From a virus, in IMG/VR virus record IMGVR_UViG_3300009127_000250, positions 27,195 to 91,194 of that record: DNA of 64,000 nt; one strand, 5' to 3'. Of this stretch, positions 7,046 through 54,420 are shown one piece after another (position 1 is the stretch's first letter; each line of letters opens with the position of its first letter). Below the pieces are notes generated by a model that ran no database searches, was not told where the DNA came from, and saw only the letters and a program-made list of their open reading frames with translations. The position numbers and the translations under genes are program-made.

Positions 7046-7211
7046 AAAATTCCTCCAAAGAATATTTTTATAAAAACCGATCATAAAAGTTATTAAGATG
7101 TCAAGGGAATTTTAAAAAATATTATAAAATTGTTATGAATATGAAAATAACACTTGCTTTTTTATAATTATTTGTTACTAATAGTAAGAATTACAAAAAG
7201 GAGATATCTAA

Positions 7212-7457
7212 TTGAAAGATTTTTGGAGTACCCATCCAGGTCAAAGATTCCGCTCTATTTTAGAATCATCCCTACCTCTGATTGCTAACAGTCTGGCAGC
7301 AGTTGCTATCCATCTTGAAAAAAGTCCCAAGTCCCAAGTCCAAAATACACCGATCGTATTTAATAGTCAGGAAGAATTTGAAAAAGCGGTCAGGCTTGCC
7401 ATAATGCAGGCTTATCGTGAAAATACCAATAATTTTCGCCAATATTTTAATTGTTGA
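7212..7457 (+). CDS. hypothetical protein upstream of the Nop-domain gene
   Basis: AAGGAG RBS, TTG start. Confidence 0.55.
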   Translation: MKDFWSTHPGQRFRSILESSLPLIANSLAAVAIHLEKSPKSQVQNTPIVFNSQEEFEKAVRLAIMQAYRENTNNFRQYFNC

Positions 7458-7475: not shown

Positions 7476-7490
7476 CTTACTGAAAGTAAG
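7476..7490. promoter_or_regulatory. palindromic operator CTTACT-N3-AGTAAG (recurs at 7174, 16562, 30892, 40582, 48988, 52740)
   Basis: CTTACTGAAAGTAAG overlapping the RBS; intergenic copies at several gene starts. Confidence 0.7.
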
Positions 7491-7501
7491 GAGAATTATT
7501 C

Positions 7502-8371
7502 ATGAAACAGTATTTAAAGACTATGGTTCGGGGTTGTTATACCGTTCAGAAATTAAGAATTCAGACTGGCAATCGGTTGGTTGCCAACTTTAGGGCCAAG
7601 TTGGGTTTGGATCCGAGTCAGAAGGAAGATGAGCTTGACAAGGAAGGTAAGCGGATCATGGAAGACATTCGGGCTGCTTTTCGGAAGATTACTGACGGTG
7701 TTTTGAGTTTGCCGAACCGGAAGAAATTTAAGGCCGAGGGTGTTATTTCGTCATACACGGAATTTGCTTTGATTTCTCAGTACATTGGACTTGAGGAATC
7801 GGAGAAGCGTCATTTTAAGCAATTAGAGGGTATATTGGCTGAATTTCCGCTTTGGACGAAGTATTTGGAGTCGGTTAAGGGCGTGGGCCCCGCTATGGCC
7901 GGTGTGATTATTTCGGAGATTGACATCGAAAAGGCGGAGTATCCGTCCTCACTGTGGAAGTATGCGGGTTTGGACGTTGCTGAGGACGGCAAGGGTCGGA
8001 GTAAGCGCAAGGAGCATCTTATTGAGGTTGAATATAAAGCTGCTGACGGGGAGGCCAAGCTTCGAAACAGCATAACGTTCAATCCGTTTTTAAAGACGAA
8101 GTTGCTTGGTGTTCTTGGGACTTCATTTTTGAGATTGGGGCCGGATCGGTCTAATTATGCCAAGACTTATTATGATTACAAGAATCGTCTTGAGAATCAT
8201 CCGGACCATCAAGAAAAGACCAAAATGCATCGTCATCGTATGGCTTTGCGGTATGCGGTGAAGCGTTTTCTTGTGGATCTGCATATTGCGTGGCGTGCGA
8301 TTGAGGGTTTACCTGTTTCAGTTGAATACAGTGAGGCCAAGCTTGGCATGGAGCATAAGAAGGCTGCTTAA
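7502..8371 (+). CDS. Nop-domain RNA-binding protein, IS110-related, without RuvC/HNH (TasA-like)
   Basis: N-terminal coiled coil (QKLRIQTGNRL); VKGVGPAMAGVIISEI...SSLWKYAGL (Transposase_20/Nop-like); HRHRMALRYAVKRFL; no DEDD domain; array follows directly. Confidence 0.85.
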   Translation: MKQYLKTMVRGCYTVQKLRIQTGNRLVANFRAKLGLDPSQKEDELDKEGKRIMEDIRAAFRKITDGVLSLPNRKKFKAEGVISSYTEFALISQYIGLEESEKRHFKQLEGILAEFPLWTKYLESVKGVGPAMAGVIISEIDIEKAEYPSSLWKYAGLDVAEDGKGRSKRKEHLIEVEYKAADGEAKLRNSITFNPFLKTKLLGVLGTSFLRLGPDRSNYAKTYYDYKNRLENHPDHQEKTKMHRHRMALRYAVKRFLVDLHIAWRAIEGLPVSVEYSEAKLGMEHKKAA

Positions 8372-8378
8372 GTCCGTT

Positions 8379-8797
8379 AGTAACCCTAAGTGTCATAGCG
8401 AGTCATTGGCATTAAGAAATCCAACATCTTGTAGCGAGTCATCGATATACAGAAACCCTGACATCTTTAGCGTACCGTCCCTGGCAAGAAAACCAGATTA
8501 AAGTAGTGGATCAGAAAGGGTTAGAAATCCAATAAGTTTGAAGTGTGCCAGAAAGGGGGAGAAACCCAATTTACCACAGCGAGTCTATGGAAAAATTAAC
8601 CCAACATAATTTAGCGAGTCATTTGGTGTAAGCAAACCAGCACAATATAGCGAGTCAGGAGGACAAAGAAATCCATTGTCAAATAGCGTGCCAGGAGGTG
8701 AGAGTAATCCAGTCATTTGTTAGCGAATCAATCCTTACAAGAAATCCAACGAGCAGTAGTGGGTCAGAAAGAAGAAGAAAACCAATCTTGTTCAGCG
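8379..8797 (+). repeat. TIGR-like dual-repeat guide RNA array, 11 complete ~36-nt units plus a leading half unit
   Basis: edge repeats (consensus AGCGAGTCA) at 8397, 8433, 8469, 8505, 8542, 8578, 8613, 8649, 8685, 8722, 8758, 8794 alternate with loop repeats (consensus AGAAATCCA) at 8379, 8415, 8451, 8487, 8523, 8560, 8595, 8631, 8667, 8703, 8740, 8776; unique 9-nt (8-10) spacers. Confidence 0.92.
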
Positions 8798-8842
8798 ATT
8801 TTAAAGTAATTTTAGTTGTTCTTTTTAAATTATAGTTTATAT

Positions 8843-8916
8843 GGCGCGTTGGTGAAGCGGTCGAACACACCGGTCTTTCACGCCGGTATTCACGGGTTCA
8901 AATCCCGTACGCGTCA
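8843..8916 (+). tRNA. tRNA-Glu(TTC)
   Basis: cloverleaf; CCGGT-CTTTCAC-GCCGG anticodon arm; GGTTCAAATCC T-arm. Confidence 0.92.
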
Positions 8917-8920
8917 CTTT

Positions 8921-9080: not shown

Positions 9081-9159
9081 AGTCCAGTAGTGAAGTCTGG
9101 TCTATCACGTCGGCCTGTCACGCCGAAGATCGCGGGTTCAAATCCCGTCTGGACTGCCA
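9081..9159 (+). tRNA. tRNA-Asp(GTC)
   Basis: TCGGC-CTGTCAC-GCCGA anticodon arm; encoded CCA. Confidence 0.93.
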
Positions 9160-18435: not shown

Positions 18436-19368
18436 ATGGACGATCGTATATCAGCAATTCAAGAAGTTGCCATTAAGGTCAAACTCAATGTTAGTTGCTG
18501 GCCTGCAAAAAAGGAAGATAAAGAAGCTACAAAAGCCACGCATTTACAACAAGGCGCCAAGCAAGATGCCGGTACTTACCGCAAAAACATGGTATCCAAA
18601 AAGCATCTCAAACCTATCAGGGACATTGAAACCGAAGCCAGGAAATTCCACAGGGAAGTCACGCTTCCATGGGGACAAGATGGCGAACGGGTACTTCCGG
18701 CCAGCATGGTTGATGAATATACCGCTGAAATGCGAAGGCTTCATCAAGATTTTGATCTTGCGGTTGCCGAGTTTAAACAGAAATATCCGGCTATTGTTAT
18801 CGATGAAAAGAGCACCCTGGGATCAATGTATAATCAAAGTGAATATCCTTCGCTCAGGGAACTTGAAGACAAATTTGATTTTAGGGTATCTATTACACCT
18901 ATTGAATCCGCTGATGATTTTAGGATTAAACTGTCTGAATCCATAATCGACCGGATTAAGGATGATGTCAGAAGGCAAGAAAACGAAAATCAGCTTAACA
19001 TAACGACAGATCTTTACAATCGGCTTCAAAATGTTATCGAAGATATGATTGGCAGGCTTACAGCTACCAAGAAAGATAAGAAAACCGGCGAAACGATCTA
19101 TAAGAGTTTTTCATACACGGCACTTACGAACATTACCGATCTTGCCGCTCTCTTGCCAAAACTCAATATCAATAATAATTACGGCCTTTCAGAGCTTCAT
19201 AAGGAAATTATGGATAAACTTGGCAAAATTTCCGTTGAGGATATTCGTGAGAGTGAAGCCGTGAGGGAAGTTACTGTCCAGAAAGGCCAGGAACTTCTGG
19301 ACGACATTGGCCAGAAAATGAGTTTTTACACCGGACCCGTTGAACAAAATCAAAAAGAGGCCGCATGA
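18436..19368 (+). CDS. DUF3150-like protein
   Basis: TLPW...G.RVLP and YNQSEYPS...L.DKF motifs; position between AAA and VWA genes. Confidence 0.65.
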   Translation: MDDRISAIQEVAIKVKLNVSCWPAKKEDKEATKATHLQQGAKQDAGTYRKNMVSKKHLKPIRDIETEARKFHREVTLPWGQDGERVLPASMVDEYTAEMRRLHQDFDLAVAEFKQKYPAIVIDEKSTLGSMYNQSEYPSLRELEDKFDFRVSITPIESADDFRIKLSESIIDRIKDDVRRQENENQLNITTDLYNRLQNVIEDMIGRLTATKKDKKTGETIYKSFSYTALTNITDLAALLPKLNINNNYGLSELHKEIMDKLGKISVEDIRESEAVREVTVQKGQELLDDIGQKMSFYTGPVEQNQKEAA

Positions 19369-19753: not shown

Positions 19754-21073
19754 ATGAAATATATAGACGAAATTCAGCAAAAAGCACTTAAAGCCCGTAC
19801 TGGCCTTGTATTGGATCAACCGTTTTTCGGAAGTCTTTGTTTAAAGATGAAAGTCCATGAAGACCCAACCTGTGAATCTGTTTACACAAATGGAGTTTCA
19901 TTCGGTTATAATCCGCAGGCTATTAAAGACCTTTCATTGCAAAATGTTAAAGCTTTAATGGCTAAGTCTGTCATTCACTTGATTCTCGGCCATCACGTTC
20001 GCAGGGGAAATCGAGATGAAAATAAATGGAAAAAGGCTTGCAATCTTATAGCCGAAGCCATCATCAAAAAAGCCAAATTTGTTCTACCAAATGAAGACAA
20101 TATAGATCTTAGCTATGTTAAAGATCACGTTGAAAATGTCTATGCCAAGCTACCCGATGATCCGGAAGGAGATAACGAAGACCAACAGCCGGATCCGGAC
20201 GGTGATGATTGTATGGACGGTTGTTCGGGCGGAAACGGAAGCGGCTCTGGTGATGGTGATGATAATGATGACCAGGGTGACCAAAATCAGGACGACCAAG
20301 ATCAAAACGACCAGGACGATCAAGGCCAAGAAGAATTTCCAAACGGCGAAGTCAGAGATCTCCCGTCACAAACCAACTCTGCTCAGGCTTCAAATTCGGA
20401 AAAAGCTAATTCTGAACAGGATTGGAAGATTGCAGCTATGCAAGCTGCCCAAACCGCAAAACAAATGGGCGATCTCCCGGGCGGCATAGAGCGTATTATT
20501 GAATCTCTACTTGAGCCGTCACAAGACTGGCGGGATGTGCTTCGGGAATTTGTCGAAAAAACGACTTATGGTGATTATACTTGGATGAGACCAAACCGCC
20601 GGTATTTTCCGCAAGGTTTAATACTCCCAAGTTTGGCTGCCGGGCTGGATTTACTCAAAGCTGAATGTGATGTTGATGCTTCCGGTAGTGTTTATGATAA
20701 GGAACTGGCACAATTTGGTGCTGAAATTTCAAATGTTCTTGAAGAATTTCCGCAAATTGAACTGACTGTTCGGTTTTTTGATACTGATGTTAAACACAAA
20801 GATACTAAAGTTTACACCCATGAGGATGTCCCCGTGGTTTTAGAAACTCAGGCGGGTGGTGGTACTGATTTTGTGCCAATTTTTGAAAATATCTACGAAA
20901 TTGAAAAACAAACCGGAGAAAGTCCCAAATTCTTGATTGTCTTTACTGATCTTGAATGCAGCCGATTTCCAAAACAGCATCCGGATTTTCCGGTTCTATG
21001 GGCAAAAGTCGGCGACAGTGATTGGGCAGAAACTCCGCCTTTTGGCGAAATCGTTCAAATTGAGGTAGGATAA
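19754..21073 (+). CDS. DUF2201-type metallopeptidase-like + VWA protein
   Basis: PFFGSL...TNG..F.YNP, acidic linker, DASGS MIDAS, GGGTDF, FTD. Confidence 0.88.
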   Translation: MKYIDEIQQKALKARTGLVLDQPFFGSLCLKMKVHEDPTCESVYTNGVSFGYNPQAIKDLSLQNVKALMAKSVIHLILGHHVRRGNRDENKWKKACNLIAEAIIKKAKFVLPNEDNIDLSYVKDHVENVYAKLPDDPEGDNEDQQPDPDGDDCMDGCSGGNGSGSGDGDDNDDQGDQNQDDQDQNDQDDQGQEEFPNGEVRDLPSQTNSAQASNSEKANSEQDWKIAAMQAAQTAKQMGDLPGGIERIIESLLEPSQDWRDVLREFVEKTTYGDYTWMRPNRRYFPQGLILPSLAAGLDLLKAECDVDASGSVYDKELAQFGAEISNVLEEFPQIELTVRFFDTDVKHKDTKVYTHEDVPVVLETQAGGGTDFVPIFENIYEIEKQTGESPKFLIVFTDLECSRFPKQHPDFPVLWAKVGDSDWAETPPFGEIVQIEVG

Positions 21074-21074
21074 A

Positions 21075-21296
21075 ATGTTTATTAAGAATTTAGAATATGG
21101 CTATACTCAGCTTCTTGACCATGCCGATGAAAGGGCTATGGTTGTAAAGCAACACGGCCCTTTTCATATCGGGGAGCAATTTATAGCATTGGTCGATGAT
21201 AGGGATAACGTAGCATCTTTTGTTCTGTCCGGCTATACAAACGAATCAATATGGGAGTGTATTTATACAGATTTTAAACTTGAATTGGTAAAATAA
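21075..21296 (+). CDS. hypothetical protein
   Basis: operon packing. Confidence 0.55.
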   Translation: MFIKNLEYGYTQLLDHADERAMVVKQHGPFHIGEQFIALVDDRDNVASFVLSGYTNESIWECIYTDFKLELVK

Positions 21297-21616
21297 TGCA
21301 CATCAGACGATTCTTAAAAGGCGCACATGAACATGCCGGAACAACGGACGGCACAGGTCAATGGACTCCTAAATCGGAATTCATCGTTTCTGGAACTTTT
21401 CACGGGCCTTGCAAAAATTACTTGAAACATTTCTACACGGTTAGATACGCCAGATTATTACATAAACACAAGCCCAAATTATACCAATGGCTACACATGA
21501 TTACCAAGCCCCAAATATATATGGGCATGCTTGGTGTTGACCCTAAATCGGACGATGGCCGTAAAATACTGGCCGAAAATGTAGCGTTTAGAATGACCAA
21601 AAAGGTAGGTGGATGA
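21296..21616 (+). CDS. hypothetical protein
   Basis: TAATG coupling. Confidence 0.6.
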   Translation: MHIRRFLKGAHEHAGTTDGTGQWTPKSEFIVSGTFHGPCKNYLKHFYTVRYARLLHKHKPKLYQWLHMITKPQIYMGMLGVDPKSDDGRKILAENVAFRMTKKVGG

Positions 21617-21852
21617 CGTTCAAAGAACAAGAAATGCTCGATCTTTTTATACGGATCATGGAGCAAAATCCGGTAGTTGAAAAGATAGTCACCATTAAGG
21701 AAAATCCAGATTGCGGACTATATGCCAGAATCAACGGCAATCCATGTGATATTCCCTGCTTTGCCGTAGCTAAAACAAAAGAAGACCATTGGTTCGGTCT
21801 TAGCAGAAAATCATGTCAACTTTTATATTTCAACAATAAGGATATTTTGTAA
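21613..21852 (+). CDS. hypothetical protein
   Basis: ATGA coupling. Confidence 0.55.
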   Translation: MTFKEQEMLDLFIRIMEQNPVVEKIVTIKENPDCGLYARINGNPCDIPCFAVAKTKEDHWFGLSRKSCQLLYFNNKDIL

Positions 21853-22173
21853 TTTTAGTTCAAACCAAATCCGACACTATTAGCTATCCATTACGTATCA
21901 ACACCAGCTACTTTTCCGCTTTTTGACCGTATCACAAATCGCATACGATTAAATTTGGCGGATTTTATAAATTGAAGATTCGGCATCCCCATCGATTCCA
22001 ATATTGAGGTCGCCGAAGTTTGCGGTTCAAGGCAGTAACCTTCAATCAGGCTAAATTGAAGATTTGAATTTTATCCATGCGCGCCGTGATAAGTTGGAGA
22101 AAGCACAGTTTTTAGAACTAAATGAAAGCTGTGATATCATCAGAAACCAGCAATCCAACCTAATTTGGCTTAA

Positions 22174-54330: not shown

Positions 54331-54420
54331 ACATGGGGGAAAGTCTCACGTCTTTAATCTGGCTACGCCAATGCCAGGGAGTTAGTCACTCCAATTACCG
54401 GTACGTGAGCCTTCCCCTGT
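54331..54420 (+). ncRNA. structured RNA candidate after TROVE, complementary to array unit 3
   Basis: outer stem GGGGAA..CTCACGT/ACGTGAG..TTCCCC; inner hairpins CTGGC/GCCAG and GGAGT/ACTCC. Confidence 0.65.

Follow-up and report, generated by a model that had tools for sequence, protein, structure and literature searches.

A probable RNA-guided, nuclease-free TIGR-TasA system of a marine phage, with further guide units inside a primase-like gene

The virus record that carries the locus comprises 91,194 bp and is 93% complete, and the window, which is the whole stretch of 64,000 nucleotides that was analysed, corresponds to its bases 27195-91194. The sequencing runs that contain the phage are DNA only and come from seawater. 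On the plus strand of the window, positions 7502-8371 hold the 289-aa open reading frame that had been picked out in the first-pass annotation; it was confirmed at this place and contains GVGPAMAGVIISEI...SLWKYAGL. The gene, tasA, encodes a solo-Nop TIGR-associated protein without a nuclease domain. Upstream of it, at 7378-7405 (+), lies a sigma-70-type promoter candidate (TTGAAA, 16 nt, CATAAT, with TG before), which matched the consensus at 10 of 12 positions in a consensus scan and, as a pattern match, is the candidate promoter of tasA. The palindrome CTTACT-N3-AGTAAG at 7476-7490 (+) overlaps the Shine-Dalgarno sequence, that is, the ribosome-binding site, of tasA. Six copies of this palindrome were found in the window, at positions 7174, 7476, 16562, 30892, 40582, and 48988, against 0.07 expected by chance, and most of them stand directly after promoter-like hexamers or directly before gene starts. 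We believe that it is probably a regulatory site of the phage, either an operator or a 5' hairpin. The ORFs adjoining tasA encode no ParB and no other recognisable partner.

A short array of alternating repeats begins almost immediately behind the gene. A degenerate leading half-unit at 8379-8396 (+), made up of a loop-like repeat and one spacer, starts 8 nt past the tasA stop codon and is in register with the TIGR array proper, which occupies 8397-8793 (+) and has 11 units, each consisting of an edge repeat of 9 nt, a spacer A of 8-9 nt, a loop repeat of 9 nt, and a spacer B of 9-10 nt. In an independent parse, the edge repeats were placed at 8397, 8433, 8469, 8505, 8542, 8578, 8613, 8649, 8685, 8722, 8758, and 8794 (+), and the loop repeats at 8415 to 8776 (+). 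The terminal edge repeat, at 8794-8802 (+), is truncated on its 3' side, where AGCGA is followed by T-rich sequence. The parse reproduced exactly the edge periods read before (36, 36, 36, 37, 36, 35, 36, 36, 37, 36, and 36 nt) as well as all eleven spacer pairs, and the anatomy of the array is the published dual-repeat TIGR anatomy, as the first-pass annotation had claimed. The consensus sequences of the edge and the loop are AGCGAGTCA and AGAAATCCA, respectively; in both of them the first two letters are AG and the last three YCA, and G2 is able to pair with Y7/C7. When the window was searched for an edge, 9 nt, and a loop with up to three mismatches, nine matches were obtained, all of them in the array, and shuffled sequences gave 0.06. 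Several repeats are off the consensus, such as edge 3 (AGCGTACCG) and loop 6 (ATTAACCCA), and three spacers in the array are 8 or 10 nt long. Intrinsic structure is absent from the unprocessed array RNA (z +0.43), which fits the dual-repeat type, and no Rfam family matches the array. Seawater DNA contigs, which are of low depth, were identical across the array, with no variation in its units.

A terminator scan detected no terminator between tasA and the array, and because both lie on the same strand, we consider their co-transcription most likely. The scan also detected no hairpin terminator between the array and the tRNA-Glu gene at 8843, and the guides and the tRNAs may share one transcript. 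The tRNA-Glu gene (8843-8917) is followed by a tRNA-Asp gene (9081-9159); both are on the array strand, and no terminator was detected in between. In total, the window contains 13 tRNA genes.

The Nop-domain assignment of the protein was borne out by profile and structure comparisons, in which both its fold and its sequence profile agree with the Nop domain seen in the TasR and TasH structures. In the search against solved structures, the single TasA sequence alone already matched TasR (9mty) and TasH, and a profile of 28 family members searched against the PDB matched TasR (9mty) with an E-value of 1.5e-20 over 183 positions and TasH with an E-value of 1.6e-12. The AF2 model, which has a mean pLDDT of 81.9, consists of helices and one beta-hairpin and starts with the Nop coiled-coil. 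When this AlphaFold model was submitted to Foldseek, the best ten matches were TasH and TasR chains (E about 6e-8, probability 1.0, TM 0.52-0.59), whereas the IS110-family recombinases of the IS621 type reached an E-value of only 3e-3. The first helix of the protein aligns with approximately residues 123-137 of TasR (TasA residues 15-28 with TasR 124-137), past the RuvC domain of TasR, which agrees with the earlier statement that no nuclease domain is present. Because there is no room for a nuclease N-terminal to the Nop domain, the protein is a solo-Nop TasA. The companion statement, that no IS110-type serine follows YAGL, is doubtful, because the nearly invariant Ser167 stands in a G-R-S motif 10 residues after YAGL; this serine aligns with Lys in TasR.

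The expectation that standard libraries would label the family as a transposase proved right. Pfam returned a partial match to the IS110 C-terminal domain PF02371 (E 5e-6), a weak HhH match, and nothing else, and PHROG returned phrog_4285 (transposase) with an E-value of 8e-34. Both labels are explained by the Nop-like RNA-binding domain that TasA has in common with the IS110/IS621 bridge-RNA recombinases; unlike these, the phage locus lacks a DEDD/RuvC domain, a bridge RNA, and element ends.

At the C-terminus, Y276, K280, and H285 are invariant in the 28 sequences. Y276 aligns with Y289 of SpTasH and K280-L281-G282 with K293-L294-G295, and the invariant H285 lies two residues past the position of the catalytic H296 of SpTasH, a residue that is needed for guide maturation in TasH. 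A C-terminal Y/H loop is reported to mark dual-repeat systems and to be absent in stem-loop ones (Xu et al. 2026, bioRxiv 10.64898/2026.09.09.750476). Judging from these residues, self-processing of guides by TasA is plausible rather than proven, because H285 is offset by two residues from the catalytic His of TasH.

In a word-indexed protein search, 2479 homologues with lengths of about 285-295 aa were obtained; their identities to TasA are 60-68% (best 68%), and those of them that have a name are called hypothetical protein. A single-sequence scan of viral contigs and a megablast search against INPHARED phages gave no match. With an alignment-based scan, 161 loci could be confirmed in IMG/VR, and 80 of these were fetched. 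Nearly all of the fetched loci showed a 36-nt periodicity beside the gene, and arrays of at least four chained units with the same repeat families were found in 74 of the 80, so the objection foreseen in the first-pass annotation, that homologues might lack such arrays, does not refute the system. The array is on the same strand as tas in 73 of these 74 loci and on the opposite strand in one (L073, with four units). Across the clade, the edges are of the AGCGAGYCA type and the loops of the AGAAAMCCA type, and 7% of the spacer pairs in the whole clade are off-size. Among the arrays of the relatives (L002-L081), 74 of 7387 within-array pairs of units (1.0%) differ at no more than 6 of the 18 spacer positions, and the corresponding share between arrays is 0.07%, about 14-fold less. 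These near-copy units suggest that arrays grow partly by internal duplication followed by divergence.

Homologues of tasA were also found in bacterial assemblies, on contigs binned to many phyla, and these contigs are probably phage contigs. The sole isolate with a relative is Sporomusa aerivorans DSM 13326, whose prophage (L101:2335-2950) encodes a TasA that is 42% identical. The array of this prophage has 17 units of the same repeat family and lies upstream of its TasA gene. This cultured strain is tractable for tests of natural targets.

Faure et al. (2025, PMC12045711) described two base pairs between the half-edges at both ends of the mature guide. In our array, position 3 of edge i+1 and position 6 of edge i are Watson-Crick partners in 11 of 11 units, and in units 3, 4, and 10 this between-edge pair is T-A in place of C-G, which means that a change in one edge is compensated in its neighbour. 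When the same 3-6 pairing is read within a single edge, it is mismatched in 3 of 12 edges. The clade behaves in the same way: among the 74 informative cases, in which position 3 is not the same in two adjacent edges, a Watson-Crick pair is found between the edges in 60 but within the edge in only 10. Such compensated changes in neighbouring edges point to selection on the mature 36-nt guide. As far as sequence can tell, the covariation supports processing inside the edge repeat and counts against decay of the array, and compensated edge changes make it possible to judge from sequence alone if an array is alive. The predicted mature guides would begin at about position 5 of an edge and finish at position 4 of the following one (8401-8436, for instance), with ends placed according to Faure 2025 (PMC12045711).

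In this study, we believe that the locus is very probably a canonical TIGR-TasA system of the dual-repeat type, carried by a marine phage and acting as an RNA-guided, nuclease-free DNA binder. This reading is built on the anatomy, homology, conservation, and covariation observed here, and for processing, DNA binding, and repression it would follow the published relatives. The gene tasA and the array would be transcribed together. By homology, a TasA dimer would bind the precursor at the repeat ends, which are box D-like (AG) and box C-like (YCA/CCA), the C-terminal Tyr/His would cut inside each edge repeat, and the resulting 36-nt guides would be retained, with the 5' and 3' half-edges of each guide paired with each other. 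Each guide would then open an 18-bp DNA site, where spacers A and B would pair with different strands, and one of the two target strands would read spacer A and then spacer B in reverse complement; this geometry is our own deduction from the reported 3' overhangs, the C-5 rule, and the text on the TasH structure. Because there is no nuclease, the complex would only sit on its site and bend the DNA, and in this way it would block transcription or replication. Because no guide matches the phage itself, the targets would most likely be foreign DNA, be it genes of the host or mobile elements that compete with the phage.

Studies have shown that TasA, TasR, and TasH proteins, FpTasA included, co-purify with 36-nt RNAs, both ends of which fall in the middle of edge repeats (Faure 2025, PMC12045711). 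One guide is bound per Tas dimer, and at an 18-bp site each of its two spacers pairs with a different DNA strand. Under RNA guidance, MbTasA attaches to its target DNA and causes a reversible repression of transcription, and the dead TasR proteins studied alongside it showed no cleavage, which fits a protein that lacks a nuclease domain (Xu 2026, 10.64898/2026.09.09.750476). The view of the first-pass annotation that the protein would be a programmable binder agrees with these later experiments on other TasA proteins. MbTasA was characterised alongside stem-loop TasR proteins, may have an array other than the dual-repeat type, and may not be closely related to the phage TasA.

Six further guide units were found in the 91,194-bp record, giving the phage a total of 17, namely 11 in the array, 5 inside a gene, and 1 after that gene. 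The five units are at genome positions 20807-20995 (L082:3808-3996), upstream of the window, and have an exact 36-nt period. They are part of the reading frame of a primase-like ORF of 639 aa at genome positions 20153-22072 (PHROG: DNA polymerase/primase), in whose product they are translated as a periodic Ser-Glu-Pro / Ser-Asn-Pro linker. The single complete unit, at genome positions 22086-22130 (L082:5087-5131), starts 14 nt past the stop codon of the primase-like gene, and its last edge is truncated on the 3' side. In the two closest orthologues of the primase-like protein, P0122 (61% identity) and P0123 (49% identity), the 12-residue periodicity is conserved but the spacer positions are occupied by other residues, and more distant homologues are without the linker segment. 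Arrays inside tas coding sequences have been reported (Xu et al. 2026, bioRxiv 10.64898/2026.09.09.750476); in those parts of the TIGR-Tas literature that were available to us, no mention of an array inside a non-tas gene was found. We tentatively speculate, and rate the chance as somewhat below even, that a single TasA draws its guides from three genomic locations, one of which is the in-frame five-unit linker of the primase-like protein. If the embedded units are processed, this would be a TIGR array that is dual-coding in a non-tas gene, and the supply of guides would be tied to the transcription of the replication genes. As a further part of this speculation, guide 3 may also pair with a structured RNA that the phage itself has behind its Ro60-like gene. 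Guide units that lie far from tas, even inside another gene, would be missed by surveys centred on tas.

The natural targets of TIGR-Tas systems are stated as unknown in both papers (Faure 2025, PMC12045711; Xu 2026, 10.64898/2026.09.09.750476). The search for 18-mer sites that the first-pass annotation had suggested came out negative in the phage itself: the 17 guides found no site with up to two mismatches in the 91-kb genome in either geometry, and the self matches with 3-4 mismatches were at chance level. Exact scans of IMG/VR with five guides, in which a gap of 0-2 nt was allowed, gave 5, 2, 1, 0, and 1 matches, respectively, which is about the chance level by a rough estimate, and the matches of the guide with five fall into two independent gene families. 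When 829 guides of the clade, taken from 55 non-redundant arrays, were searched against 0.95 Mb of the loci of the relatives, no real match was found. In the Sporomusa aerivorans host, 5 of the 17 prophage guides, searched with up to two mismatches, had no exact site; one site with a single mismatch lies in an NlpC/P60-like gene, and reversed-pattern controls matched too. Exact-match hunting for 18-nt sites in public viral data thus stays at chance.

Two more specific ideas about the targets were rejected. The first was that the guides are directed against kin, whose genes would differ from those of the phage at silent positions; the own genome gave 15 five-residue peptide matches, compared with an estimated 9 or so by chance. 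The best of these was between unit 8 and the ORF at 18436-19368, and a metagenome scan for relatives of this gene returned one fragment. The second was that translation starts are targeted, as some reconstructed targets, such as that of unit 9, resemble a Shine-Dalgarno sequence with an ATG; the 823 distinct 9+9 spacer pairs collected from the clade showed neither ATG nor GGAG-type words in positional excess. Such a word occurs in 4 of the 11 spacers A of this array versus approximately 10% in the clade (p about 0.02, estimated post hoc), and the units behind this count are partly paralogous. The resemblance of the targets of this array to ribosome-binding sites and start codons could be taken as a weak lead.

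Nop-domain proteins are ancestrally RNA-guided RNA binders, and the guides might accordingly be thought to work on RNA as box C/D snoRNAs do, with both spacers pairing with one RNA strand. In a variant of this idea, a structured RNA of the phage behind a Ro60-like gene would be modified, sequestered, or chaperoned, or would be a decoy for guide 3. Positions 54352-54405 of the window match unit 3 in reverse complement, in three colinear blocks of 11, 9, and 7 nt that include the whole of spacer A as well as the aberrant edge 3, and the score of this chain was reached by 1 of 2000 unit shuffles. The RNA-like region at 54333-54420 folds well (z -4.3), ends in a U-run, and has no matching Rfam family. 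However, the p-value of the match is only about 0.02 after correction for 17 units, the blocks are 9 and 18 nt apart where the guide has 6 and 0 nt, and no other unit has a comparable match. Moreover, fibrillarin (PF01269) and L7Ae (PF01248) are absent from the 91-kb genome in a search that was positive in control genomes, TasR has been published as inactive on RNA substrates, and for TasA proteins, binding to DNA has been demonstrated (Xu 2026, 10.64898/2026.09.09.750476). We consider it very unlikely that RNA is what the guides act on.

It could also be supposed that the array is a decaying relic, with TasA kept for another role and the guides unused. The off-consensus repeats such as edge 3 and loop 6, the three spacers of 8 or 10 nt, and the failure to find a target for the guides tried would fit this supposition. 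However, the deviant edges are compensated in their neighbours by the T-A pairs of units 3, 4, and 10, the processing residues are invariant, and spacer pairs of unusual size also occur in the clade as a whole (7%), which leaves decay a slim chance. The last reading, a truncated IS110-family transposase beside a chance or unrelated short tandem repeat, can cite the transposase labels of PF02371 and phrog_4285, but it is refuted by the co-occurrence of arrays in 74 of 80 loci and by the covariation, and the missing DEDD/RuvC domain, the length of about 285-295 aa conserved over 2479 homologues, and a fold nearer to TasR/TasH than to IS621 by five orders of E-value also speak against it, so that its probability is negligible.

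For the TIGR-TasA reading, the closest known counterpart is FpTIGR of Flavonifractor plautii (Faure 2025, Science, PMC12045711), which likewise has a solo-Nop effector and is phage-borne. FpTIGR-like dual-repeat systems have the same alternating short repeats, 9-nt spacer pairs, and 36-nt unit, the same box C/D-like repeat ends and 3'-truncated last edge, and the same placement of the array, on the tas strand and directly downstream. Unlike these systems, the phage locus has no detected hairpin terminator after the array and a tRNA gene instead, and the phage has six additional units at a distance of 13-15 kb, of which five are embedded in a non-tas coding sequence. TaTasR (PDB 9mty) and SpTasH (PDB 9w03, 9w04, and 9vzx) have a Nop domain homologous to that of TasA, with about 20% identity. 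Both carry an N-terminal RuvC or HNH nuclease and cut DNA, whereas the phage TasA has neither domain; the C-terminal loop of SpTasH with the Tyr/His of maturation has a counterpart in the phage protein. The nuclease-free, RNA-guided DNA binding of MbTasA and dead TasR (Xu 2026, 10.64898/2026.09.09.750476) would be the most likely mode of action here. Structures of PlTasA have also been described (Guan et al. 2026, bioRxiv 10.64898/2026.08.11.744272). The archaeal box C/D sRNP, composed of Nop5, fibrillarin, and L7Ae, has the same Nop fold and coiled-coil and likewise uses two guide segments framed by box C/D-like motifs. In contrast to it, the phage has no fibrillarin, L7Ae, or K-turns, and all tested Tas systems target DNA, whereas the box C/D sRNP targets RNA.

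TasA is the commonest effector of these systems, of which 20,096 tas loci have been catalogued (Faure 2025, PMC12045711; Xu 2026, 10.64898/2026.09.09.750476), and the TIGR-TasA locus itself is one more member of a known family. It is useful for two open questions of the field, the natural targets of TasA and the growth of arrays. More than the locus itself, it is the guides dispersed over the genome and embedded in a gene, together with the covariation test, that give it its value. As for the repeat ends, box D is AG in this phage, whereas TasR arrays are described with UG. A distant relative of the primase-like gene in IMG/VR is flanked by a TIGR-like array (L135:3664-3850) with edges TGCGAGCCA and loops TGTAACCCA, and these repeats have UG...CCA ends, as described for TasR arrays.
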